Virus record (IMG/VR): IMGVR_UViG_3300021400_000154
Coordinates: 32,001-96,000 of that record
Origin: a virus
Taxonomy: Duplodnaviria > Caudoviricetes
Direction: 5' to 3' (one strand)
DNA length: 64,000 nt
The translations under genes and the position numbers were made by a program. Positions 3,069 to 59,194 of this stretch are shown in pieces (the stretch's first letter is position 1; every line of letters starts with the position of its first letter). The notes below the pieces were generated by a model. The model saw nothing but the letters and a program-made list of their open reading frames with translations, was not told the DNA's origin and ran no database searches.

Positions 3069-3323
3069 ATGGATGTCGTGACGTATGCAGCAGCAGTCGG
3101 GAAAGCGAAAAGCCTGATCGACGAACACATTCACGATCTCCCCATAGCGTCCAAGAGCAAGCTTGGGGCCGTCATGATTGGGGACAGTCTGGACATCTCC
3201 GGTACAGGCAAACTGTCAGTCCTGACAGCCAGCGACGCCGAAAGCGACAACACGCTTCCGATCACATCGGCAGCGGTTTATACGGAGATCGGAAACATTA
3301 ACGCACTGTTGGCAACGATATAA
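3069..3323 (+). CDS. hypothetical virion protein
   Basis: ORF MDVVTYAAAV...EIGNINALLATI within the late operon. Confidence 0.6.
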   Translation: MDVVTYAAAVGKAKSLIDEHIHDLPIASKSKLGAVMIGDSLDISGTGKLSVLTASDAESDNTLPITSAAVYTEIGNINALLATI

Positions 3324-3365
3324 TGCTGGTGCTTATGCACAGCGATTACGAGAGGTGATGGAAGC

Positions 3366-5183
3366 ATGAGCACCGCAACAGAGATTGCGCGACTTCAAAC
3401 GGCGCGCAATACCATCCGCAACAAAATGATCGAGATTGGCGTAGGCCAATAGACAGACCATCTGGACGATCTTGCTCAAGAGATCGATAACATACAGAAC
3501 AGGGGATCTGTCAACGCAACGGTTCGCGAAGGCGAATCCTACACGATCCCTGCGGGATACCACAGTGGTTCCGGTACGGTTACCGGTATTGCAGGTGGTG
3601 GCAACTATTCGCTGCAGGCGAAGTCTGCCACACCCACAAAGCAGCAGCAGAGCGTCACGCCAGACAACGGATACTATGGCCTGTCCAGCGTGACCGTTGC
3701 TCCGATCCCTGCTGCGTACCAGGACGTTACTTCTGTGACGGCAACAGCGGCTGACGTTCTGGCGAACAAAGTGATTGTGACGTCAACAGGCGCTGTTACG
3801 GCAGGCACCATGGCGAACAACGGCGCAATCACGAGAACGCTGGACACTACAACGACCAGCACAACGATTCCTGCCGGATACCATAATGGATCCGGTACGG
3901 TCAGTATCACAACGGAAACCAAGACTGCCACGCCGACCGAGGAAACACAGGTTGTGGCTCCTACGCCGGGGAGTGTGCTGTCGTCAGTAACGGTTAATCC
4001 GATTCCGGCTAACTATATTGACACGACCGATGCAACAGCTTCATCGCTGGAGATCCTGGAAGGGTATTCCGCATATGTGAACGGTGAACTGGTGGAAGGC
4101 GAGCTTCCGATTAATCCAGCGCCAGCTGTTACTTTGACTGTCAGCAATCAGGAGTATTCGCAGGAAGAAGGATACTACGAAGGTGAAGGAATCATCAATG
4201 TGGCATCTGATTCTTCATATGAACAGAACGCCGTTGTTCCGACAACATCTCAACAGCTGATCCAGGGTGAGAACAACGCTTTCCTTACGGCTGTGTTAGT
4301 TGATGCCATCCCGAGCGAATACCAGGATGTTTCCGGCGTTACCGCTACGGCTGGCGATGTACTGGATAGCGCGTCATTTGTAGACGCGAACGGTGATACA
4401 ATAACCGGTACAATTCCTGCGAATGCGGCTGTCACCGAAACGCTGGACACGTCGAACTCGACCTATACGATTGATCAGGCGTACTACAGCGAGGGCGGGA
4501 CTGTGACCGTCAACTACGAGACGATCGACGCTTCGGACCCTGTTGTTCCGACAACGGAACCGCAAATCATCACAGGAACCAATAACGCATTTCTTGATTC
4601 TGTGTGTGTTGACGCCATACCGTCAAACTTTGTAGATACGACTGACACTACGGCTACGGCTGCGAACATTCTCGAAGGCCAAACAGCCGCTATTAGCAGT
4701 GGCGTTGTGACTGGCACAATGCCAGATTGCAGTGGAACAGATGATGAGTTCCTGTTTCCAAATGATTTTGTTCTCGAAGGGCATACCATTCCTGCTCATA
4801 CCAGCTGCACTATAGCGCAAGGTTATCATGATGGTACTGGCACTGTGCAGATATTTGTTGAAACTGCTACGGCTACTCCCACAAAGCAAGCACAGACAAT
4901 TTATCCGTCCGATGCACACACTTTGTCTTACGTAACCGTCAACCCAATTCCAGACAACTACATCGACACTACGGACGCGACGGCGACAGCAGCTCAGATT
5001 CTGACAGGAGCCTCGGCATACGTGAATGGGGTGAAGGTCACCGGCGCAATGGCGAACAACGGGAGCGTGACAACCACGATTGACGGACTGACTTCTATGA
5101 GCGCAACTATACCTGCCGGGTATACGACGGGAGGTACAGTGACCCTCACGAACGATATTGAACAGGCTCTTGCCGCAATTTAA
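3366..5183 (+). CDS. repeat-containing fibre protein (head or tail fibre; 1 in-frame TAG)
   Basis: ATG 3366 after GAGGTG RBS; TAG at 3450, continuing in frame into ORF 3690. Repeats DATATAxxILxGxxAYVNG / TIPAGYHxGSGTV / TPTxxxQ. Confidence 0.75.
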
Positions 5184-18529: not shown

Positions 18530-21500
18530 ATGCCGAATGATCAAGTAGTACTTGATGTCGTTTTTCAGCCTCAAGTAGAAAGCCTGATTCAATAGTTGCA
18601 TCAGGCATCACAAATTGCGTCAGATGACGTTCAAACAATGCTTACCGAATCAATAACTCAAGCTGGATTATTGGCGAAAGAATCTGAAGGCTTTTAGTCT
18701 CAAAGTATGCCTCAGGAATATGTTCAAATGGCACAATCTTTAATGAATGCCATGAATAAACAAGTTCAAGACATCATCGCACAGCTTAATAAGGCATCGC
18801 AAGATGCAACTTCTTCTGGGTTTGAGGATGGTATTATCCAAAGAATAAAGACTACAATAGGTTCGCTTACTGCGAACATTATAGATCAAACTTTTTCAGT
18901 TGGCGCTATGAAAAATATTGTTGGTCAGATAGCACCTGATATGGCACAGTCTTTTGCCCAAAACTACAGAGATTACTATTTGCAAGCAAGTAGACTTATG
19001 GCAAGGCAAGCCAAAAACCCAGCAACAAACGGCGAATGGATGAAGTACCTTGATTTAGATTCTGGCTTTGCCGCTGGTCAAAGAGCTATGATGCAACATT
19101 TTGGGTTGTCAGAAGCTCAAATGAGACTGATGCAAGAATCAGTAGTGCGCAGCCAGCCAAATCAAATACGTATCGATTACGCCAGAAATGCTGTTCGATA
19201 TTCAGGTGGGGCCATGAAGAAAGTTGGCGTGATCCCACAATATATGACATATCAAGAACGGCTACCTGCTTTTTATCAGGGCTTAAGCAACCAACCACAA
19301 ACAACAACGTTGTCCCCTGATGAAAGGCAGGCTTTACAAGCAGAAGTAAGTGATGAGCAATGGAAAACAATCAGAAGTATAGCCGCTAGCAACCCTTCTT
19401 TTGAAAAAGCTCTTATTATGGCTGGATTAGCCCAAAGAACAGTCCATAACAAAGCGGCAGGTTAGTTAGTTATGCCACAAAAGCCAGTAAGTACTGAATT
19501 GGTTGCAAGAGCGATTGGCCATTTACATAGAGATATAATGATTCCTTAGCTCGAGGGAGCGCCATCTAATTACAGAAAAATCACATAGACATCTGGTGAG
19601 GATCAGATGGCAATGGCAAATGCAGATTAGAAAACAGTGTTAGATATTATCGATGCGTTTCATAAACTTGCTCCATTGGGTATTTCTCCCGTATATGGTG
19701 ATGCTGTTACACGCCCATATAATCCACAGACTGGCGTTTCGCGTGTACGAGGTGCGAAATCTACTGCAGCTCCAGAAAGATATCAGATTATGAGTTTAAC
19801 ATGGGATGATTTCCAAAAAGGAGTTATGCTTGATCCACATGGCCCTGTTCAAAGCGAATATGAAGAAGGCGCAAGGGGCACATCGACAAACAAGATGATT
19901 CTTGAATCGGGTTTCACAAGAATGCTCGGCATGCATGGTAACAACACGTTCGGTAATGGAAGCAAAACAGATAATAGTTCGCCTTCTATAATACAAATTG
20001 ACTTGTAGGATCGATTATTAAAGAAACGTAAAGACGGAGAGTTAGAATGGGAAAATGGACACGTTGTTCAAGATGAAGATACTGCGAAGCTAATCGAGCG
20101 TATATTTACTATTCCGCAAGGCCATTCTCACCCGAGAGTTCAGTTTGGCCAAACTGGTATTCATTATGTTCCTACTAATGTGAAGAATGGCGTGATTACT
20201 CTTGGACGGGAAGATGCTGTTGAAAGTGCAATCAGCGATTCTATAAGACTGACAGGGCATAATGTGCTCGCTAATATGGTTGACCCGAATACTGTGTTCT
20301 AGACATATACTGATTTGAATAAACAAATCGAGGCATACAACAGAGACTTAACTCCGTCTGTGCCTATTGAAAGAATGGGCGGAAAGCTTCCTGATAAAAA
20401 TAGAATCGCATTTGTTGATCTGTCTTCGTTTACAGGGAAAAAAGATAGTAAGACTGGCCGTAATGACTATCACGATGGTTCATCCTTTTTTATGCCTGGC
20501 TTTATTCCAGGTGGCAATGCAACATACAGAATCGCCGGACAAAAGGGCACAGCTCAAACAGTTGATTTCCGTGCAATGATTAGAGATTTATACGGCGATG
20601 TTGATCATTTTTATTTGCCTGCATTGAATGCTCCGAAAGAATACAAAGATGCATTTAACCAGCATGGTATTGAAAAAGTTAGAGAAATGATGCAACAACG
20701 AGGAGAGTTGTAGAAATTCGAAGAATATTTCCTTGATGCGTTACAGTTTGATGCGCTTATATAGGACTCAGTCATTAAATCGCCTGCGTACAAAGGCTTG
20801 ACGAACGCACAGGCGCAAGATCTTTTTTATAAAACAAAAGAAACCCCTATGGGTATGGGCATTGTACAAACAGCAAGCCAGTTTTTGACAAAAGGGAAAC
20901 TTTCTCTTGGCAGACAGTTATCTCAGCATTTAGACTTAACACCAGAGCAGATAGCAGAAAACAGAGAGTTGTGGGAGAACTATATAAATATGCTCAGATA
21001 TAGGCCAGAAGAGACTGCAAAGAGGTTGTTTTCAAATCCTAACAATTCTTTGGATTCTAAGATAATGGCTAACCCTGGATTAATGTGGGATGACCCAGAA
21101 GCAAGGTAGATTGTGCTAAACGAAATATCTAAAGCTATGATTTCTATGGCGAACGGAGAATTGTTTTAGGATGGATTATCGCCTTCTGCTCTGGCCGCAG
21201 CGAACCCAGCAAAGATATTAATGGATGCAGCCAGCAGAAATGGCCTTAAGATACAGAATCCATTACTTGCGCGAAGGCTTACACTTGGAACTGGTAAACT
21301 TGCTGCAGGATTCTTGGATGATGACGAGATAGCAGTTGGAAGATGGCCAATGACACCTGGAGAACAATATAGTGCCCAACTATAGAAAGATTACTTGGAG
21401 GCTGGAAGAAAGTACGGGCTCGCAGATGACGTTTTTTATACTGATGCCGGATTTATCGGAGCAATGGGAGGCGGAGATGTCGACGGCGACACGATCCAGG

Positions 21501-24500
21501 CATTAAGAGGAAGACTTCGTGATTATGTAAAAAACACAATAACTGCAAGAGCTGGTAAAACCGGGCAACGTGATGCGTCTTTAATACCAGAACCTTTGCC
21601 AGCAAATCAAAAAATAGGGCCAAGAGTTTTTGCAGATCAAATGTTCAGAGCTGCTCAGCAGCAGATCGAATTAGGAATGGTCTCTAGAGCTCAAGACGCT
21701 TTATCCCAACTTCCTTGGATTGACCCAGAAATAGTTAGACAATATGGGCAAGCGAATGCAGACTTAGCCATGCAATATGACGTAGATTCGACTTTTTTGA
21801 AGACAGGCGTATTGGCGAACTGGACTCAGGCCTCAAAAAATGCAAGGTATTTAGGCAGACCTTTCAGTCATGTATATAAAGACCTTGTTGGAGCTATCCA
21901 AGAAGGAGATTATTCGAAAATAAGAAAAATGTAGGAGTTGAACTTTCCAAGTCGGTATCATGCTTTGACGGCTTAGATGATGGAAAGTTTATACCAGAAT
22001 CCAATAAGTAACACAGCTATTGACAAAATGATTGCTGCTCAAGAAGATTTAGAAGGAATACCTCAGCTTGAACAAGGAGAGCTATATCAACGAAGTCAAG
22101 CCGCGTTCTTAAGAGAAAACATACGAGTGATGTAGCAATTACTCTCTTCAAGAGCTGGTTTTGTTTCAACCGAAGATTTTGAAAACCTTGGAGCAAAAGC
22201 AAAAAAGTGGCAAGCTGACGTCCAAACAGAGCTTGCTCGACCTGGCATAGACGAAAAAAGAAAGAAAGTTCTTTTGGAGAATTTGGGACTTGCACAACAG
22301 CAACAATACCGTTTAGATCGCTTAAGACAGTTCGGTGTTATTGAAGGAGCTACAGACGGTTATGTTAGCTTGTTTAAAAACACTAGAGGCACTTCTGGAT
22401 AGTCTGTTTTTAGTGTTGCGCAACAGCAAGCCACGGATGCAGAAGCAGCTGAGGTTGCGGCAAGAGTTGGCGCCAATCCAACAATGATAGCAGCGATGAG
22501 AACTGCTGCGGAGAATGCGCAAATCGCTGACGCTAAACGAAAAGCCGAGAGCGCGAGATATAGTTTCTCTCAGTTGGCTCTGTTGGATAAAAGCCCTGAA
22601 GAATGGTTTAATCGGTACATAGCTAAATCAAGCGAAACAGAAATGACGCCAGCAATACATATTGGCAACGTTGTTGATAAACTTACGACAGAATGGGGTT
22701 ACAGGAGACTAGCTGAACAAAAAGGGCAAGGAAAAATGCTTACTCCTGATGAGTTTGAAAAAATGTTTGTTGCCTTGTTTACAGGAAACTTTGATCCATC
22801 TTCTTTTATAAGCGGTTTTGACGAGCGCGAACGCAATAAGTTTACAGATGCGGCGAAAAGGCTTGGTTTTCAAAATGGAATGGAACATCCATCTGACAGA
22901 TATAGAAATGCTTTAGCATATGTTAGAGCGATGCCTTTCATGTTGCCAGATGAGGAAATATTGGAATGGGATGATAATGGAGAGAAAAAACCATCTGTTC
23001 AAGTACGCGTTCGCCCTGATTTCGGAACAACTCCTTCGGGAAGCAGGGTAAATAGTATTGGTTTTGTAGACTTGATCACGAGAAATAAACATACAGGTCA
23101 GATTACAGAATGGGACACAAAAGCAAATAGCGACCAAGAAGGACGTACTGGAGGCATCAATCAAGTATATTCTTATAGTACAGATCCTGCCTTCCAGCCT
23201 TCTCATATTGGAATCTTAGCGTACAATGATCCTGAACACACGGTAACACAGCTTCCTTTTTCTAAAGAAAGACAAGATGAAGTCCGAGCTATGACTAGGG
23301 ATATTCTTGCTCAACGTTTTTTAATCGCTGAGCATGGAGACAGTTGGGATTTTATTCGGAATCAGTTCTATCCAGGAATGAACGAAGCAGCAGAACGCAC
23401 GCAAACTGAAGCCGAACATCAACAAAGTAGATCTTTTATGGAACAAGGAACTGGAATGGCAATGGCCAAAGCAATGACGTTGCAAAATGATATCACAGAA
23501 TATGAACAACGCATGCAACAAATAACACAACAACTACAAAATGGATTAAGGCGTAGAAGCGGGGATCAAACAGATAATCCTTGGGAGTCTTTTGATGCGC
23601 AGTTGAATGCTTCATTTGATGCAAGAAGACGACAGTTGGTAAAAAGGGGAGCCAACAAAGAAGATTTGGTAGGTTTAGACGAAGAGAGAAGAAAAGCTGC
23701 GGAAATGTTCGACAAAGCTTTAATGGAAGCGGCCGGTGGAGAAAAATCCGATATCGTTCAAACAATAAACGCGCTAAATGATTAGTTCGCTAAGCGACGG
23801 TCTGATTCCGGTTTGACAACTTACATTCAGGAATTTGAGGGCATTGAAAAGGCAGTTAAATAGGCTACTATGGCGTTTGACGTGTTTGAACAAAAGATGG
23901 CAAAAAAGAAGAACTTGTCGCAGAAAGATCAAGAAGCTCTCGACCGTGGAAGACAGCAAAGAGAAGAGCTTACTGGTTTGGCAGACATACAAAGGCGCGC
24001 TATATAGGAAGAGGCAAAACGGAAAGCATTGTCGCAAATAGAAGATTTTGCAATAGATCAAGGTACCATGGAAATGACTCCAGAAATAAGAATGCAGCGT
24101 ATCAAACAAAAAAGGGCAGAAGAACTGATGCGTACTCAGTTAGCCATAGGAGAGTTAAAAGATAAAGGCCTTTTATCGGAAAAAGATTTCGAATCAATGT
24201 CTAGCAGTATTACTGATATGCTTGGCGATCAATAGCTGGGTGCTTTTGCTGCGCGCGCTGAACGAATCCGACTTGGATTAGAAACAAAAACGCCTGAACA
24301 AATGAGTCAGGAGCGTTTGAGAGATATTCGAGCAGCGATTGCAGCATAGGTTGAATCTGGAGGAGACAGTCCTGAAGTTGCCGCAGCAAGAGAAAGAAAA
24401 CGTGCAGCTGATAAAGCTTTGGAACAAGCACAACAACAAGCTGCGGAAGCGCAACAGGCAGCGGGTGGTAAAACAGTTACAGCTGAAGATGTAGCGGCGG

Positions 24501-27500
24501 CAAATGCTACAGTAGTATCAGCAAAGTCCAGACTTAAACAGTTGCAATAGGAAAGAGATCGAATAAGTACAGATATACAAACCCGCACATCTGCTCTTAC
24601 AGGAACTCAGGCTGAACAAAAAGCTCGTCGAGATGCTCTTCAGTAGGCATATGGCGAAGCGAAATCAGCCTATGAGCAAGTTGTAGCTGCCCGCCCTGCA
24701 GACGGAAGTAAGGCTCTCGAGGAGAAAAAGGCAGCTTTGCAGGCAGATTTAGAAAAGCGAAAGAAGATTGGTACTCCGGAGCAAGCGGAAGAAGCTTTAG
24801 CGCGAGAAAAAGCAGAATTAGAGAGACTTACTGCAGCAAGCGGAACTGCATAGCAATCTCTGAAACAAGCCCGCGCAAGCCAAACAATAATGGATCAAAG
24901 AAAGGAACAGCAGGATATTATTACAGCTGCGACAAAGGATTTAGAAAAACTCAAGCCAGATCAGGAAAGAATAACAGAGGCACACACTAAAGCTAAGGCA
25001 GCCAGAGCTGCTGAAAAAATACATAAATTACAACCCCAACTTGGTGGGAAAACCCCGGAAGAAATCTTGCAAGAAGAAGAAGACGCCAAAAAGGAACTTG
25101 AACAGGCTCAGAAAGAAAAACAAAGAGCAGAGCATGATGCAACTGCTTATTGGGGTAGCCGAAAGAGGAAGGGTTTGAGTCAACAAGGCGACTTTAAGGC
25201 AATACGTGGAGAGCTTTTAGATCACCTTAGTAAACTCAGTCCCACAGAGCTGAAAGACCTTGGGTTTATATAGCTTGCACCTGATAAAATGGACGAGGAT
25301 GCATTGGCCTCTACCCTCAAATACAACGCTGGTGCTTTTTCTAGATCTCGCGACACATCCCTTTCAGGACTTGCAGCTTAGTTTGTTGAAGCCTGGAAAG
25401 CGGAGAAAGATTTCCGACCGATTTCAGGAAGAGTAGAGGAAGCACAAGGGAGAGCCGCAACAGCTCAAGCAGCAGTAAAAGGACTTGAACAAAAGGCCGA
25501 AGCAGCAAGGAAAATACAAGATCTTTTGCGTGATACTCCTGGAGCTAAAGAAATGCTGTCAAAAACAGACGAAGAACTCGCCGGCTTTAAAGAAGCGGAA
25601 GATGCTCAGAGCGTATCCGAGAAATAGCAAGCAGCACAACAAAAGATAAGCGCAGCTTTGCAAGAGTTAGCTAAACTTCCTGAACCTAAAGAAGTTGATG
25701 TCAAAGGGAAACAACAAGAAGCTGCCGAAGCGGCTGGAGCAGTGGATGCTCAAAAATTGAAGGTTGAAGCAGCAGAACAAAGATTAAAAGACGCTAGAGA
25801 ACTGGACACACGAATCAGAAGTTTTCCCACTCTGACAGAGCTAGAGGAACAAATCGAAGCCGAAGGGCAAAAGCAGACCGATGCTGCCGAAGCAGAACGC
25901 AAAGCAAAAGAAAGAATGGATCAAGCACAAGAAGCGTTAACTGCAGCTACGCCACAAGACACTACAACAGCTCAATCAGAGATCGCAAGCTTGAAACAAC
26001 AGCAAGCCCAAAACCAAACGCAGATAGAAGCTCAACAGGCAGTAGTAGCACAGGCGGAAGCAAACCTTGCGGCAACAAATGCTGCTGCTCAAAACCCTGA
26101 TGAACGGATAGCCAATGCGAATGCAGCTGTTGAGAATGCGCAAAATGAAGCAAACCAAGCAGCCCAGGATCTGGAAGACGCAATAAAGAAACAGGATTCC
26201 ACTGCGAATCAAAGTATTGACGAGCAAATGAAACCCCATGTTGAAAGAGAAAACCAAAAGCTTGAAAGAATCCGTCGGAAAAGCGAGCGCGCCAGAGAAG
26301 ATTTCAGGCGTATGCTTACCGGCGAAACATTGACTCCAGAGGAAAGAGCTGCCAGGTCTGAAGAAGACATTAAATTCGCGCTTCAGGAAGCAAGAGACAA
26401 AATGTATGAAGATGGCAATCAAGATTGGCAAAAGCTTGATGAGATCCTTGGCAATGATAGTATGTGGGCATAGTTCAGGCAGCGTACTTAGCAACAGGAA
26501 AAGACCATGGACCAGCTTGCTCAGAACGATCTCGAGCGTACTGCTCAAGACCTGCAGAACAGAATAACCGGACACATGGAAACGAAGGAAGAAATGGAGA
26601 ACAGAGCGATCCAGACGTTCAGGGATCAAATCATTCAGAAGCGTGATGCAGCGAAGAAGAAAGGATTGGATACTTAGGCTTATGACAGGATGCTTGAGAA
26701 GGATGAGAATGGACAAGAACAGCTCAGAGGCGATTTACAGGGTGCCATCAAGGAGCAAACGGATTTACAGAGACAACAACAGATCGCTCAGCGGAGAATG
26801 CAGAATCTCGGTATTCTCAGGCGCGTATCTGGTTTCACAAGCACGACAGATGCCGCTGCTCAATATGAAGCTCAGAAGCAACAGGACCGTATTGCTTTTA
26901 AGAATGCAAGAGACAAAGCTGAAAATACAGCGGAAGCAGAACGCACAGAGCAAGATCGTGCTCTCCTGGCGATGACCGAAAAGGATTGGGAACGGCAATA
27001 CGACGAGCAGAATCTTGGAATGCAAGGGCTTGGTACAAGGGACGCTGCGAGAAAAAAAGCACAAGACGATTACCGCAATAATAAGGGTTATATTCAAGAA
27101 ATCCAAAACAGCGCCTTGTAGGATACAGAAAAGGCAGCAAGACTTGCAAGATTTTCCAGGTATCTGGGACAAGACAGACAGCTTATTTCCGAGGAAGATT
27201 ATGTCAATCAGGAACTGTAGTTATTTGATGAAAGAGCTGATATAGCAAGAAGAAATGCTTTGCAAGGTATAGATCAAGCGGCTGATGCTTCTATGCAATA
27301 CAGGTTAGGAAAGCTTTCTAGTGGGCGGCGTGCGTTAACTAGCTTTGGTATGACGTCGCAAATGGAGCTTTCAAGGCGTTTATCAGCTTTCAATCAATCT
27401 GCTGCCGCGCGCAGGAGTAGCGTCTCTTTATCTTCAAAAATCAAAGAAACAGAGACAGAGCTCGCCTCGCTCACAGATGCAGACAAAGAAAAAAGAGCTA

Positions 27501-30500
27501 CTCTTGAAGCCAGGCTACAAGCTTTGCGCGATCAACAATCATTAGCTGATACGCAGTCTGAAGAAGCAGAGCAGAGAGCTCTCGGAAAAAACAAAAAGTA
27601 TCAAGCCGCAAGAGGAAAATACGATCTCGCAAGACAAGCTTACGATGCCGCGTTGAAAAACAATGATTCTGATTAGATGGCAAACGCAGCACAAGGTATG
27701 CGCGACGCCGAATAGGAAATGCAAAGAATCGCGGCAACATCTATAAGCGCGCGAGCTTCCCTCTCTGCTCTTGGGCAAACGTTTGCTAGGGTTGGCATGC
27801 AGTTCGGAAGGCGCATATTCCAGGCAGCCATTCGTGAAGCGACTCAGTTTGTCAAAGTATATGATCAAACCATGCATCAGATTCAAGCCATAACCATGAA
27901 ATCCAACCAGGAGATGGCTACAGTCAGATCTTCTACGATAACTCAAGCTATAGGTTTAAAAACCTCTGCGACAAACGTTGCACAGGTCAAATCAGAGTTA
28001 TATCGGCAAGGGTTATCTGATTCGCAAGTTAATGACAGAACTGATTCGATTATAAAGTTTTCTGCTGTCACAGGGATGAAGGCAACGCAAGCAACAAAAG
28101 CTCTCACTACGGCGTTGCAAAGCGGACTTGTTAATAATATTCATGAGGCAATGGACGCGATGGTCGCTCTGGGCGATAGCGCAGCAACGACAGCTGAAGA
28201 AATAGCAAAAGGTATGCAAAAATCTGCTGCGGCTGCAAAAGTTGCAGGCGTGTCTTACGGTGAACTGACATCCATGTTAACAGTTATCACCAGCAAAACT
28301 CAGCTTGGCGGCAATCAAGCAGGCACAGCGCTTCAAACGATATTCAGCCGGATGCGCAGAGTAACAAACGAAGGTATAACCAGTGATGAAGGCGGAGAAA
28401 TCACAAGCGTCAATGATGTCGAAGAATCTCTTCAACGTGTTGGCATTTCTATGAGAACAGACGCTAACAGTTTCAGAGATACGTTGGATATCCTTCGCGA
28501 TCTTGCAAAAGTTTGGAATGATTTGAATGACATACAGAAGAACAATATCATGTATAATATGGCTGGCGCAAGACAGAGCAATATGTTCTCTGCTTTAATG
28601 GAAGGATTGGCTGATGATAATGGTAAGACATTTGATAAATATCTTGGGCTTACTGAGGATAGTGATGGGATAACTCAGAGCAAATACGAAATCGTAATAT
28701 CAAACATCAATGCAGAACTCGACGAACTGAAAACCACATTCGACGGGCTTGTAGAAGCAGTCACAAACAATGGATTGTTAACGTTCTTCATCGACCTCGC
28801 AACAACCATTACTGGTTTTGTCGCAGGAGTTTCCGATGGATTAGGAGCTATCCCTTAGCTTCTCTGGGCTATTGCTGCTGTGTTAGACGTGGTGAAGATT
28901 AAAAGCGCTGCAGTGGCCGTATTCAAAGGATTGGCGAATCCTGCTACGTTAATAGGGCCGATTTTAGGCCTTCTGGCTGTTGCAGGAGTAGGCGCTTTGG
29001 GATCACACATAAGTGGATCAAGAAAAGCAACAGAACAAAATACTGAACTGAAACGACAAGCCGATTCTGACTTTCTAGAACATGCATCCAGTGTTCGTAC
29101 GGATAGCATAGAAAAAGTGGAAAAAGCACTTGACAAAGTAAAGCAAATGCAAAAGATAGATGTCGATATGGAAACAGAAGAAGCCCAAAAAGCGCTGGAA
29201 GATCTCAAAAGAAGCACAAAGGCGATAGGTGGCAATATCTCTGATTGGCCAAATGCCGTAAGAGAGGCTACAAAAGCTATAAATGAAGCGAGAAAAGAAA
29301 GTGCACTATTTTTACTCGGACTTGGGGATACTGGGGCAAAGGATCTCCAGACAAAATATAATAATAATGTTTAGACATATAATGGTGCCATCTAGTAGTC
29401 TGATTTTGAAGACGGCGGTATATTATATGGCAGATCAATTTTCCAGGGTATATCTCAAAAGGACTTAAAACCTTACTCAACACAAGACGGTAAAGGCGGC
29501 TATACTTACGAAAGCTTGATAAATGATCATTAGAAACTTGACATGAAAGCGCCTCGTAAATCTATGACTTATAGAGATGCGATGAAACAAGATTTAGAAA
29601 ACATTGGTATAAAGACAGAGGGGCTGTAGGACACAGACTTGATCGATTTGCACGGTGTATACTATTACAGTGGCCTTTCCCAAAACTTTAGGCGCGTTAA
29701 ATACAACAAGAATGCAGGCAATCAAAATCGTGATAACCAGGAATATGCTTACGAATTTTTTAAACAGCTTTCTGACAACACAAATCAGCAAAATATAACC
29801 ACTTCATCATTGAAACGTGTAGAATCATGGTTTGATCTGTGGACTAAAACAGCAGGATATGAAAACTTTATGAATGCTCATGGTGGACATATAGGTTCAT
29901 ATACAGCAGGTGGTTCCTTTGAAGACTTTGCATCTGTTATGGCAAAACAACAATACGAAGGAGTTAGAAATGAAGTTATTGGGTTATGGGATTAGGACGA
30001 AACAAGAAACGAAATCGCAACAAGAGCTGCTGAAGAAAATGAAATTCTGTCTAATATGGACAGCTTGTTCGTTCAGTCGCTTATGACTAACGATGATGCA
30101 TATGGGCCAGCTGTAAAACTTTGGACTTAGGGTAACGAAAAGTTTAAGGATCGCATTGTTTCCGAATTTCTTGATTACGCAAAGGACCAAGGTATTACGC
30201 CGAATTATACAAATGTTAAAGAGTGGCTAATGAAACAAATTGAAACTTATACTTCTGATGAATTCCTGCGGATGTATGGGTCTCCCGAAGACTTTGAGTA
30301 TTATTATTCAGATTCAGAAGGCAATCCATTGTTTGGTGCGCATGATTTATAGCGAGAAGCAATCCTTGAGGCGTACAACGAAGAAGTTGCGCTTGCCGAG
30401 AAAAACGGTAACACCAAACGGGTTGAGGTACTTAAAGCGCTGCAAGAAGAAGTAAGTAAGTATAATCCTTTGAAGACAAACAAAATATATACGTCATCAG

Positions 30501-33500
30501 GGGCGCAAGTTGGCGGTACTATTGGAAGTATTTTCGGAAGCACGAATCTTTCTTCTAAAGACTTGGGATACAGAACTGAATACGCACAACTGCTTGCGAT
30601 GGCTAACGGAGTAACAGACTATGACGCATTTAAAAATACAGAAGGATACACGACATTGACGGCTCTCGCGCAAAACGATACTGCTCTGACGACTTTAATG
30701 CAAGATGCTAATACCGGACGAGCTGGCCTTGCTGATATTATTGACTATCTTGAGAAAAAAGTCTATGGCGAAAACTATATACAAACAACAGCGTCTTCAG
30801 GTAGGGCCATATCTGAAAATAGACTTGATATTGCAGCGCTTAAAGATGAAACTAGTCCTTTGCCTGCTTCTGTTGCCAAGCGCGTCGCAAGCGCGATTAA
30901 TCAAAACGAATCGTATGTTTATCAAAATAGACAGGCCGCTGCAGCTATGCTTGAGTAGACTACCGATCAAAACCAACGTGGTCTTGAGACAAAAGCTCGT
31001 GGATGGATAAGCGATCTATATCGGTTTGCGTAGAGAGAAGATATGCTTAAGGACTTAAGAAAGAACTATTAGAAAATGTCTGACGAAGAAATAGCAACGA
31101 TGTATGGGAGCTGGGGCATTACAAACAGATCGATGGCTGCGGCTGTTTCCAATAACAGTAAAGTCCTTAGTTCTGATTAGGAAGCAATGAATTATATCCA
31201 AGCTCTTGCTGCCCAGCTTCCTGGATTTGAATATGATAAGCAAACTGGCGGAATCAAGTTTACAGGTATGGATGTAAAAGGTTATGAAGATGTTTTGTCT
31301 TTTGCTCCCGTTATAACAAATCATGATGTAAGAGACCTTGCTGAGACAATGTTGAATGGTGCGGAAGGGAAAACGTGGAACGATTTTGTTAATAAAGCCA
31401 ATCAAGATATAGCAAGACAGTTAATGCAGCAAAATCCTGAACTGTTCACGTATATGACGATGACTGATGCTCAACGAAGAACAGAGGAAGGACAAGCCGC
31501 ATATTATACTGCAAGACAGCAACTTCTTACGTCTGAACTCCAAACGCTTGAAAAAATCGGGCAAATCCTTCCAGAGGCCACTCAAGTTGCACAACAACTT
31601 TCGAGCGGATCTTATGGAGATCAGATTGCAGGCATTAGTGGTTTTGGGTCTATGGTGCAAAGCTATGGTTAGATAGTTGCTCTTAGGCAGAAAATATCTT
31701 AGATGACAAACTTAAGCGATGAAGAATGGAAATAGCAAGGCGGAGAAGCCTACGTCAACAAGCTAGCCACGATGTTAGGATTGGATCCTTAGCTTTTTGA
31801 CAAGAGTAATGTTGACGAACTGCTTGAGCAGGGCAAAAAGAAAGCAGACAAAATATCTAACGGTTTGCAACAAATTATTGAATCTGTATTCGACATAGAT
31901 TTATCCAACTACGACAATCTGGAAGGCGTTATCGCTAAGCTCGAAGAAAGCGGAGACGCGTTATCAAGCTTTTTTGCCATACTATTAAGATCCCTTTCTG
32001 ATGTATATGGGTTAAAGATAAATGATCAGCACGAGCTCGATGTGGAAGGCAACGGCATTTAGGGAGCTCAAATATTCCAAAGTGCAGACGAAGAAGAGTC
32101 TTATTCGGATAAAGTCATAGGGAGAGACGCGTTAGCCGCGTTCTCAAGCCAAGCAAGAATAGCTTCGACTTCTGAAACACCTCAAACTATTGGCGATGTA
32201 GTTGGTTGGCTTGTGCAGCAAGGGATTATCTCTGAGACAAATCAGATGAAAAATATGCCTGGTTTTGCTGGACTATTAAACAAATACGGCGCAAACAAGG
32301 TTATTACTCCTGATATTGCGGACGAAATAGAGACGCTTACTCCATGGTCTTAGATGCTGGTTAACACGGAGTATGGCCGAAACGCTGATTTGTTTAGCAC
32401 AGCATTGAACGAAGATGGTACAATAAATCAAGATAGATTAAAGGCAATCTATAAGTCAGATGTCGATGGTTCATTTACTTCTTGGGCAGGCGACTTAACG
32501 TACTTACAAGATGCCATAAATGGTGTCGATGGCGCGATGGAAAAACTCAACAATGAAATCTATTACAAAGGTTTACGCGCCACACATGCATTTGGAGAAA
32601 ATACAGAAGAGATTGTTGATGGTATGGCAGACATGAATAAAGGTTTAATCCAGGCTACAAACAGATTCACCAAGTTCAATGAGACAACGACAAAAGCTCT
32701 AAACAACAAATATTACATCAATATGTGGAAAAAGGGAAACAGAGATTCGAAAGTTGTAGATTACATTTCTTAGCTAACGAAGATGGATAAAGAAATGGTC
32801 AGCTCCCGAAAGTATGACGCTCAAATTAATACATTGTTGGAATCTATTGAGCTTGGTGATATTAGCGCTATTGAAACAGAAGGCACTACTCTTATGGGAA
32901 GTTTAGGAGAACAGCTTCAAGGGATGCTTGACAAAGAAACGATGACTCTGCATCTGAATAATGTCGATGTGGATCTTTCAGAGGGATAGTACAATGTAGA
33001 TTTTAAAGATGTGAATACTAGGCTTGCAGGCATAATCAAAGATCAGCAAATGGCAATGATCAATACGCTGATGCAAGCTGGCGTCAAAGGCCACCTGGAA
33101 GTGTCTGGCAGCGGCGACAACATCGTTGTTCAAATGGTAATAGACGATATGGGCGAAGGTGTTAAACACACTGGTGGCGGTGGCGGTGGAGGTAAGTCAG
33201 CCGCTCAAAAACTGATTGATCGACTCAAACATAAAGACTCTGAGGCTGATCATCGCCTTAAAATGTTGCAATATGAGGAGACAAGATACGAGAATGCTGG
33301 AGAGATCACCAACGTCAACGCGTTAATAGGCCAGGAAAACACGCTTCGCGAAGAACTCAATAAAAAATATGAGGAAAACATTGAAAAGTTAAAAGAGCAG
33401 ATGGCGAAGACAAAGAAAAACACAGACGACTGGTACAGCCTGCGGGATGCCATCATGTCCTACGAGGAAAAGATCAAAGAATCGAATAACGCAATAGAAG

Positions 33501-34969
33501 AGAACAACCGGAAGATTGAGGAGAATCTGCAGAAGATTCGTAAGCTGCGCACTGCACTTGAGCAAACGGTCGAGCAGGAAATCCAGAACAGAATCAAGCG
33601 TGAACGAGATATGCTTTCCGGGACAGTTGATATGCAGAATACGGTTCTTGACGCGATCAAGCACCGGTATGAGGAAGAGTGGAAACTCGTCCAAAGGGAT
33701 ATTGACAAGAAGAAGTCTGCGCTTGAAGAAGAGAAGAACCTGATTGAGGAGCGGCTCAACAAGCGCAAGGAAGCAGAAGATGAAGCCCAGAAGTACGAGG
33801 AGCTTGCGGAACTTCGCAGACAGTATGCGCTGATCTCCATGGACTCCACCAGAACAAAAGATGCAACAGAGATGCGCAAGAAGATCACGGACATGGAGAA
33901 GGAGCTCGCCTATAAGTCAGCGGAAGACGAAGTGAAAGCGCGGCAGAATGCGCTTGACGAACAGATTAACGCTTACGACAAGTATACTGAGAACGGCGAA
34001 GAGGATCTTCAGATGCTGCTCGACAATGCGAATAACTTTGGCGACGAGCTCAACAAAGTTATTGGCATGAAGGACGAGGAGCTGTACAACTGGCTGATGG
34101 AAAACGTGACCGAGTACGCCAACAGCGTCAAGGAAGCGCAGAAGCAGATCATGCTTGGCTGGGAAGACACGTATAACCAGATGATTGGTTATACGCCAAC
34201 CTACTGGGATGGCTGGACTGATCTGGAAGGCAACGAGCATGCTGGTGTTTACGACATTCTGTAGAGCAGAGAATCGTATCTGGAGTTCATGAAGGAAAGC
34301 CAGGATTACCTCAACGCGTCCGAGACTGATAAGGCAGCCATGGAGTACGAACGTGGCACTGCTTACGACGAGTGGATTAACTCGCTCAAGACAGGTGCTT
34401 TCTGGGAACACTTTGATAAATGGATGGAGACGCTTGGCTTAAGTTCAGTGACTTCTGGAAACAGCGGAGGAAAAAACAAACCTGATTTGAATGACCAGTT
34501 AAAACAGTTAGGAGAAACAGCAGCCAAACTTACAGGTAGAACTGTCGCTGATCTGCTCGAGATTGAACGTAGATTCGGGTTGTATGCAGGGCAACAGTTT
34601 AACGCTGGGACAACCAATGCAAACGGTATTCCTGGAAACGCTTCCGGTGGCCTTGTCGACTACACAGGTCTTGCCTGGGTTGATGGATCGATAACGAAGC
34701 CTGAGGCGTTCCTGTCTGCTGCGGACACCGAGCTGATGCGCAACATGCTGGATGCTGCATCCTACCTTGCGTATCGTCCGACGATCAGCAATATCGACAG
34801 CAATGCTTTCGGCAAAGGCGGGATTAATATCGGAGACGTGAACATTACCATCACAGAAGCGAGTTTCAAGGAAGATGCAGACTATGAGCGGGTGGCCGAA
34901 CGGGTTGGCGCGGCATTCGTCAAAGAGCTTGGCAAGCAAGGATTCAACACAGCCAACTATGCATTCTGA
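18530..34969 (+). CDS. giant tape measure polyprotein (~5479 aa, >50 in-frame TAGs) with RNA polymerase-like and PD-(D/E)XK nuclease domains
   Basis: AGGAGG RBS and ATG 18530. All 21 long + ORF fragments from 18707 to 34289 share one frame, and every intervening stop I checked is TAG. TP901-type tape measure core at ~27800-28800 (GNQAGTALQTIFSR...NMAGARQSN); C-terminal ASGGLVDYTGLAWVDG..KPEAFL; ends in TGA. Confidence 0.85.
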
Positions 34970-35029: not shown

Positions 35030-36220
35030 ATGACTGGCGGATTTACTTTTAACGGTACAGACATTTCCATCCTCGGTCTGGAATACGTCCCAGACAATCA
35101 AAACACATACGTCTTCAGGCCATCGCAATGGAATATGAATGAGGAGACTTTCGATGCGCACGATGGCGGATATTATTACGGAACAACCGTGAAACCGAAG
35201 GACTTTTCGCTCAGGTGTATTTATGAGAGCAGACATGTGAACGACGGAATCTTGACGAGAATCTTTAATACTTTTAAGAGAGGAACAACCGGCAGACTTG
35301 TGTTCAGAAAGCGTCCATGGTGCTGGTATGTTGCGACTGTTGTTTCCGTTGATAGTTCACAGATGACCAACTACATGAACGGCCTGATCACGATTAACAT
35401 GAGAGCTTACTATCCTTTCGCGAGAACGGATAAGACATACATTACAGACGACGATGCTGCAGCAGAGCTCTATCCTGGCGGGCCAACGCTGGAGGAAGAC
35501 CTGTTGGCGAATACAGCCATGCTGAAAGGGATTGAGTGGGACCTGTCCAAGAACTTTGCTGAGACGCCGATTACATCGCAGCAAACATTCCATCTCTATA
35601 ACCCTGGCACAGAGACGGCTCCTGTTGCCATTGAGATCGCAGGCGATACGGGAACGGGCATTGTGATCACAAACTCAACCACCGGTCAGAGATGCGACAT
35701 CGCGCCTTTCGACTCTACGTCTGGTGAACATGCCGGGAAATACCTGATCGTCGACAGCTTAAGCGGCAAGGTGCTGCTGACAGATGGCTCAACGTCCACA
35801 ACATATGGTTTCCTGTACCACGACAATGGCTATATCGATTTTGCTTCCGGGTATCCCGTTATCAGAAATGTTCATGTGACAGGACAATCTGGCCAGAGTC
35901 AGCTGACCTTAAGCGAACCGATTGGAGGCAAAGAGTTGATCGGACATCAGCTCAGCATGTTTGTGTCAGGCCAATCCTGTCTGCTTGGCATTGCCGTTGT
36001 GGGGATTGCCAAGCTAAGCGTTCAAGGCACAGGAAGTATATTCAATGCAGGCATCACAAACGTTTCTGATGATGGGCTGACACTGTCATTGGACAAATCT
36101 CTTGCGTCCGATGTTGGGACCGATGCTTAGCTTGTGAAATACAATGAGATCACAATCACGCCCAACACAACCATGAATCTTACGAAGCTGATCTTCCGGT
36201 ATCGGCCAACATTTACTTAA
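35030..36220 (+). CDS. distal tail protein (Dit) (1 in-frame TAG)
   Basis: GFTFNG N-terminus, RAYYPFA and YNPGTETAP motifs; read-through of TAG 36128 gives the C-terminus LIFRYRPTFT-TAA just before the next RBS. Confidence 0.75.
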
Positions 36221-58996: not shown

Positions 58997-59017
58997 CCGA
59001 TCATCTCCTTTTAAGTT

Positions 59018-59102
59018 CGCGGAGTACAGGATTTGAACCTGTGGTATGTCGCCATACGACGGTTTTAGAGACCGCTGCAATAAACCACTCTGCCAACTCC
59101 GC
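59018..59102 (-). tRNA. amber-decoding tRNA (anticodon CUA) with serine-type body
   Basis: GCGGAGT-TG-GCAGAGTGGTTTATTGC-A-GCGGT-CTCTAAA-ACCGT-C-GTATG-GCGA-CATAC-C-ACAGG-TTCAAAT-CCTGT-ACTCCGC-G; anticodon at 59066-59068; long variable arm; G73. Confidence 0.92.
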
Positions 59103-59105
59103 ACA

Positions 59106-59190
59106 CGCGGCGTGGAGGATTCGAACCTCCGGAATCTTTCGATTCGACGATTTTCAAGACCGTAGCCTTCAGCCTCTCGGCCAACGCCGC
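59106..59190 (-). tRNA. tRNA-Ser(UGA)
   Basis: Acceptor GCGGCGT/ACGCCGC, loop CT-TGA-AA, variable arm GAATC-GAAA-GATTC, G73. Confidence 0.92.
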
Positions 59191-59194
59191 ATAG

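Follow-up and report, generated by a model that had tools for sequence, protein, structure and literature searches.

What might a nuclease be doing inside the tape measure protein of a phage tail? The question is raised by a stretch of 64,000 nucleotides (hereafter the window), positions 32001-96000 of IMG/VR record IMGVR_UViG_3300021400_000154, which is a complete virus genome of 110,614 bp. A first-pass annotation had placed a PD-(D/E)XK nuclease domain in the same protein as a polymerase, and this is borne out: the nuclease lies within a single open reading frame (ORF) of 5,479 codons (18530-34969, + strand; no Cys), read with TAG as a sense codon, and follows an RNA-polymerase-like module. 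Residues about 1338-1623 of this giant protein (22541-23398, + strand), which contain no cysteine, are almost certainly a PD-(D/E)XK nuclease of the RecB family, in fold as well as in descent. Below we set out the evidence for this assignment, for an intact active site, and for the spread of the polymerase-nuclease architecture, and we weigh what a nuclease in this position might do.

Motifs and fold of the embedded nuclease

The domain carries the whole series of motifs of the PDDEXK_1 profile. It starts with YSFSQL (22559-22576, + strand, as for all motifs that follow), an N-terminal helix motif that corresponds to the SxSxL start of the profile and aligns with FSFSEL of P0016, a stand-alone member of PF12705; its S8 (domain numbering) is nearly invariant. 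Motif I, GNVVD (22664-22678), contains the invariant Gly42 as well as Asp46, a position at which most relatives have the metal-ligand His, and falls on helix 37-60 of the predicted model. Motif II, GFVD (23060-23071), provides the invariant Asp177 (codon 23069-23071) on strand 174-182, and motif III, DTK (23114-23122), provides Asp192, which is Glu in one relative, and the invariant Lys194 on strand 188-194. Motif IV, QVYSY (23162-23176), closes the series with the invariant Gln208 and Tyr212 on helix 205-212. All of the strings quoted in the first-pass annotation (YSFSQL, GNVVD, GFVD, EWDTK, and QVYSY) occur in frame 2 of the + strand, with EWDTK at 23108-23122 and the Asp codon that starts at 23069 exactly where it had put them; its motif positions are correct and its domain start at 22560 is one base off the reading frame, which is immaterial.

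The PDDEXK_1 layout that it had recognised holds as well. A regular expression for the motifs with realistic spacings (SxSxL, Gxxx[HD], GxxD, [DE]xK, QxxxY) was run over the six frames of the window and the full series matched a single time, at the nuclease domain. In shuffled versions of the 5,479-residue protein, the full series occurs 0.001 times per copy by chance, and the core of motifs II-IV alone 0.088 times.

Under the standard code, the nuclease region corresponds to a TAG-free ORF of 433 residues, P0001 (22484-23785, frame 2, + strand), and the nuclease domain itself likewise contains no TAG. P0001 had no match in Pfam or PHROGs, found only itself in word-index protein searches, and gave no match when used alone as a query for related viral loci; sequence and profile searches of the PDB with the nuclease domain were also without a match. 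In a protein-language-model search, 27 of the 30 nearest clusters were PDDEXK_1 (score 0.96), and an exhaustive HMMER search among 1.84 billion representatives found 15 relatives. Six of these are giant proteins of 4,456-5,641 residues with the nuclease domain at the same place (about residues 1335-1660), and the relatives also include P0016, which matches PF12705 at 1e-23. Seven of 11 family members matched PF12705 (best 3.9e-15), and hhalign aligned the window domain with P0016 at 97.4% (E 9.5e-12), all motifs being in register.

In the predicted structure, the core elements follow the order expected for PD-(D/E)XK proteins, that is, a helix with motif I, strands with motifs II and III, and a helix with motif IV. 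The profile comparison and structure prediction that had been suggested as checks both speak for the domain, through the alignment to P0016 and through motifs that fall on the expected helices and strands. The closest structural relatives are the RecB-family DNA nucleases AddB, AdnAB, Dna2, MGME1, and Cas4. The nuclease domains of AddB, AdnA/AdnB, RecB, Dna2, and MGME1 are carried on helicase motors or by free repair enzymes and not by virion proteins, and the embedded domain shares only 9-14% identity with them.

Catalytic residues, cysteines and the phage's other nuclease

For the active site, we aligned 16 embedded copies (that of the window and 15 others) with two stand-alone PDDEXK_1 proteins. 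Across these 18 sequences, there is no variation at G42, G167, D177, K194, Q208, and Y212 (domain numbering), while position 192 is Asp in 17 and Glu in one, the classical D/E alternation. The first-pass annotation had named catalytic residues that are not conserved among homologues as an argument against itself; D177, K194, Q208, and Y212 offer no such argument. In the seven full-length giants, D1514, D1529, K1531, Q1545, and Y1549 (protein numbering) are invariant, and the identity of some embedded copies to that of the window is as low as 13-21%. Because the catalytic residues stay fixed while the remainder of the domain drifts on long branches, we argue that the embedded nuclease is probably a catalytically active enzyme.

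None of the 16 embedded nuclease domains contains a single cysteine. The whole 5,479-residue protein has none either, its giant homologues have 0-2, and gp96 of phage P23-45, to which we return below, has none in 5,002 residues; the other virion proteins of the phage mostly have 0.3-2% Cys, and one has none. By definition, every member of the Cas4 family has an iron-sulfur (Fe-S) module of four conserved cysteines (Hudaiberdiev et al. 2017, PMC5704561). Because this module is absent from the embedded copies, the domain is, on its sequence, not Cas4 proper but of the RecB family, so that the RecB half of the RecB/Cas4-like label first given to it stands and the Cas4 half falls. Among the structural relatives, the AddB and Dna2 nucleases bind a 4Fe-4S cluster. 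We infer that the loss of cysteines is an adaptation to passage through the tail tube, where an extended, refolding chain could neither carry a pre-assembled cluster nor risk disulfides, and that the nuclease was remodelled to fold without this "iron staple."

The phage also encodes a separate stand-alone nuclease. It is a Cas4-like exonuclease of 255 residues with 6 Cys (PF12705 4.5e-24; phrog_69), encoded at 108.5-109.3 kb of the genome, outside the window. Its gene is directly adjoined by that of an SbcD/Mre11-like exonuclease (423 residues; phrog_284 5.8e-60), the pair occupying 108.5-110.6 kb on the - strand. Each of the four relatives checked likewise has a separately encoded Cas4-like nuclease that bears the Cys motif, and the stand-alone nucleases of the phage and these relatives have 4-7 Cys in a C...CxxxC...C pattern. 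Stand-alone phage Cas4-like exonucleases of this kind (PF12705, phrog_69) share catalytic motifs and homology with the embedded domain, and hhalign of the embedded domain with the phage's own stand-alone nuclease gave 97.2% (E 3.6e-11, 210 columns, motifs in register). They are proteins of about 255-282 residues with 4-7 Cys that are encoded amid DNA-metabolism genes, whereas the embedded copies are Cys-free and part of a tape measure.

In a maximum-likelihood tree of 16 embedded and six stand-alone copies, a single branch (support 93/92) splits the two groups, with branch lengths of 0.27-0.45 among the stand-alone and 0.3-2.5 among the embedded copies. As far as such a tree can tell, this pattern fits one old fusion as opposed to repeated recent copying. 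We also considered whether the embedded copy arose by recent duplication of the phage's own stand-alone nuclease; the tree and an identity of 19% speak against this.

The existence of two nucleases also bears on where the embedded one would work. It could act in the producing cell before assembly, in recombination, concatemer processing, or late degradation of host DNA, and be only a passenger in the virion; it belongs to a TAG-recoded late gene, and late in infection the cytoplasm would contain the protein in free form. However, the phage has a dedicated stand-alone nuclease beside an SbcD-like exonuclease for such jobs, and both the fusion to a tape measure and the loss of every cysteine suggest that the embedded copy has a role tied to tail passage. 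We consider work in the producing cell to be highly improbable.

The giant protein, its polymerase-like module and its relatives

Between 18.5 and 35 kb, all long open stretches in this frame terminate at TAG, and reading TAG as sense joins them into the single ORF of 18530-34969, which contains 57 in-frame TAG codons. A suppressor tRNA with anticodon CUA (87 nt; 59017-59103, - strand) allows such read-through. It has a long variable arm and a discriminator G and resembles the tRNA-Ser(UGA) that adjoins it (59105-59191). Because of this tRNA-Ser-like length, variable arm, and discriminator G, TAG is more likely decoded as Ser than as Gln, the residue used as a placeholder for TAG codons in our translations. 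We also considered P0001 as a separate product starting at the ATG at 22484 under the standard code and rejected it: no ribosome-binding site lies upstream, and this frame is missing from the relatives that do not recode TAG.

The tape measure core of the protein is marked by a match to PhageMin_Tail (PF10145, E 1.8e-26) at residues about 3143-3346 (27956-28567, + strand), and the ORF matches 14 PHROG tape-measure families. Terminase, portal, and capsid-like genes lie upstream, the next gene downstream encodes the distal tail protein Dit (35030-36220, + strand; phrog_33 E 6.9e-19), and a minor tail protein gene is also found downstream. Because this core is combined with structural genes upstream and with Dit and the minor tail protein directly downstream, the giant ORF is identified as a predicted tail tape measure protein. 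Profile scans of the ORF detected no peptidoglycan hydrolase or peptidase domain, in line with the first-pass annotation, which had recognised no peptidoglycan hydrolase. At about 33170-33200 (residues about 4882-4892), a run of 7-9 Gly is followed by Lys-Ser (GGGGGGGKS) and is invariant across the giant homologues. This run formally matches the Walker-A-like pattern GxxxxGK[ST] and may be merely a hinge.

The RNA-polymerase-like module comprises residues 430-1320 (19817-22489, + strand) and contains a DxDGD motif at residues 983-987 (21476-21490), which is invariant in seven giants. Sequence and profile searches of the PDB with this module found no match. Its structural model has a predicted local distance difference test score (pLDDT) of only 65.9 and yielded no significant Foldseek match; the alignments that extend over more than 300 residues are to two-barrel polymerases only, with Z scores (RDR2 7.7, P74 gp62 6.0, and QDE-1 5.1) that are modest and come from a model of this low pLDDT.

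How widespread the combination is was addressed by scanning IMG/VR with an alignment of the giants, which returned 24 loci, and by calling domains in these loci with broader profiles, whole-record searches, and inspection of the spacers by eye. A nuclease with motifs I-IV comes after a polymerase-like module in 15 distinct viral loci, in the window, and in one contig from a metagenome-assembled genome (MAG), that is, in 17 of 21 distinct related loci. Co-occurrence with the polymerase among related phages, which had been proposed as a check, is thus the rule. A narrow hidden Markov model (HMM) had suggested that many relatives lack both domains, and this was overturned when broader HMMs and reading by eye revealed both in most of them. 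In the giants, the polymerase-like module is recurrently followed by the nuclease, a long coiled coil, the tape-measure core, and lastly a C-terminal domain. Of these loci, only the window, L005, L007, and L012 show TAG recoding, so that the fusion does not depend on the code change. Taken together, the nuclease is, at the level of predicted domains, a conserved and integral module of the giant tape measure family.

The MAG contig (L040, JAZQFG010000001.1) is 100 kb long, is binned with an Acutalibacteraceae MAG, and shows the same domain order. It was the sole match in a search of 185,579 species genomes and gives a weak hint of hosts among the Clostridia (Oscillospirales). Searches of 50,697 GenBank phage records by tblastn gave no match for P0001, two other embedded nuclease copies, or the polymerase-like module. 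The first approximately 100 residues of the conserved C-terminal block occur in 2-5 tandem copies in L004 (24398-25696), L008 (15914-17227), L018 (18272-19558), and L022 (17432-18709), and this variable copy number may reflect the tuning of tail length.

Influenza PA and bunyavirus L likewise combine a PD-(D/E)XK nuclease with a viral RNA polymerase, in one polypeptide or one complex. The likeness is one of design only, as those endonucleases cleave RNA and fall in different branches of the superfamily. By this analogy, the embedded nuclease might act on RNA for the adjacent polymerase, in transcript trimming or in primer making, and it does directly adjoin the polymerase-like module in 17 loci. 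Influenza PA-N also appears in the Foldseek list, although far down and without significance (rank 47, E 0.19), whereas all strong structural matches are RecB-family DNA nucleases. An RNA substrate is accordingly a very doubtful prospect.

The only characterised fusion of a polymerase and a tape measure is gp96 of Thermus phage P23-45, a tape measure protein of 5,002 residues whose N-terminal virion RNA polymerase transcribes the first genes (PMC10770324). Like gp96, the window protein is a giant, Cys-free tape measure with a DxDGD motif, here in a polymerase-like module, toward its N-terminus. We detected no sequence similarity between gp96, which has counterparts in P74-26, G20c, and TSP4, and the window family, and profile and motif searches found no PD-(D/E)XK domain in gp96, whose description mentions no nuclease (PMC10770324). 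Conversely, gp96, from a phage of Thermus, has a metallopeptidase domain and none was found in the window protein. A phylogenomic study of the Cas4 family gives helicase and Cas1 fusions and no virion or tape-measure fusion (PMC5704561). Full-text searches of the literature likewise found no report of a nuclease borne by a tape measure.

Possible roles of a nuclease in the tail

Other enzymes are known from tape measure proteins, such as the peptidase of T5 Pb2 and the Rpf-like motif of mycobacteriophage TM4. As in T5 Pb2 and TM4, the enzyme domain described here lies within the tail ruler and would be released on infection. The enzymes of these two phages attack the cell wall from the outside, whereas the embedded nuclease would need to reach the cytoplasm to find its substrate. 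A delivery model has been published for the tape measure polymerase of P23-45 (PMC10770324), and by analogy with it we lean toward delivery of the nuclease into the cell.

As an overall explanation, we propose that the embedded nuclease is active, is delivered together with the polymerase, and processes an end of the phage's own genome; the chances for and against this proposal seem to us about equal. The tape measure chain would be extended in the tail tube, exit before the DNA at infection, and refold, as other tape measure proteins do. A hydrophobic segment after the tape-measure core may contribute to a channel, and the polymerase-nuclease head would come to lie at the cytoplasmic mouth of this entry channel, tethered by the coiled coil; gp96 has been proposed to transcribe at the entry pore during DNA entry (PMC10770324). 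There the nuclease, with a divalent metal, would attack DNA ends in the manner of its structural relatives. No DNA end other than the leading end of the entering phage genome would be reliably present at this site, and processing of that end, with 5' resection as one option, might serve the neighbouring polymerase or the establishment of the genome. Taken on its own, the choice of the phage's own genome end as the substrate is an analogy with these relatives and is tentative, somewhat less probable than an even chance.

Alternatively, a delivered nuclease might be directed at the host and cut the chromosome, plasmids, or defence-related DNA at entry, for shut-off or counter-defence. Virion-delivered counter-defence proteins are known from other phages, for instance the Dar proteins of P1 and IPI* of T4. 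An intact, conserved active site is what such a role would call for, and since a separate nuclease for replication and recombination exists, the embedded copy would have a different job. However, few copies per virion are expected, and the very long coiled-coil tether to a membrane-inserted tape measure would restrict their reach; moreover, we saw no feature that would shield the phage genome. The closest structural relatives require free single-stranded ends, which an intact chromosome does not offer, so that a few tethered and end-dependent copies would be poorly suited to attacking it. Because these nearest relatives all act on single-stranded ends, we favour end processing over an attack on host DNA, which we judge to be unlikely.

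Several observations weigh against an active nuclease that processes the phage's own genome end. The trimmed window domain scores 19.0 bits against PF12705 (E 0.0015), below the curated cut-off of 22. At the ligand position of motif I, the window and its two closest relatives, L005 and L007, carry Asp where most other copies carry His; an Asp at this position is plausibly compatible with metal binding. Four related loci (L012, L019, L020, and L022/L026) keep the polymerase-like module with spacers of 460-704 residues and no nuclease, and the nuclease is therefore dispensable for that module. Lastly, the "direct terminal repeat" of the record (1-107 and 110508-110614) is an exact overlap of 107 bp only, which fits a circular assembly and is uninformative on the physical termini. 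In L012, a Pro-rich linker stands in the place of the nuclease.

Some of these points would also suit a domain that kept its fold and lost its cutting activity, and that binds DNA, holds DNA ends, or acts within the ruler as a spacer or an aid to folding. Such a change could be read from the His to Asp replacement in motif I of the window phage and from the complete loss of the domain in four lineages, and a Cas4-derived non-catalytic virion protein, TP1 of TTV1, is reported (PMC4625639). Yet inactivated PD-(D/E)XK domains usually lose the D and the (D/E)xK, and here these and the QxxxY stay fixed at 13-21% identity. A domain that holds DNA and does not cut it is thus improbable.

The proposed processing of the genome end could take the form of a resection-coupled first transcription, in which the nuclease trims the 5' strand and thereby exposes a 3' strand that the fused polymerase would use as its template or as a form of promoter. 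In vitro, gp66, the crAss-like virion polymerase, is efficient at transcribing single-stranded or denatured DNA and not double-stranded DNA (bioRxiv 10.1101/2020.03.07.982082). The structural model of the polymerase-like module suggests that the fused polymerase may resemble the QDE-1/RDR type, to which gp66 is related. We put this coupling forward as speculative and rather unlikely; if true, the injected two-enzyme machine would make its own template without host helicase, supercoiling, or single-stranded DNA-binding protein.

Tape measure proteins have long been viewed as passive rulers, sometimes equipped with cell-wall enzymes, until 2024, when the first RNA polymerase of a phage was shown to be part of its tape measure. 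The nuclease is a second nucleic-acid enzyme among the cargo of tape measures, and the polymerase-nuclease pair is conserved over a broad and entirely uncultured group of phages of roughly 100-150 kb, some of which read TAG as sense. It offers a natural RecB-family nuclease that would fold without cysteines or an Fe-S cluster after passage through a tail tube. If it is active and delivered, it would bear on how, within seconds of the onset of infection, virion polymerases of the QDE-1 type obtain a usable template on phage DNA that is double-stranded.

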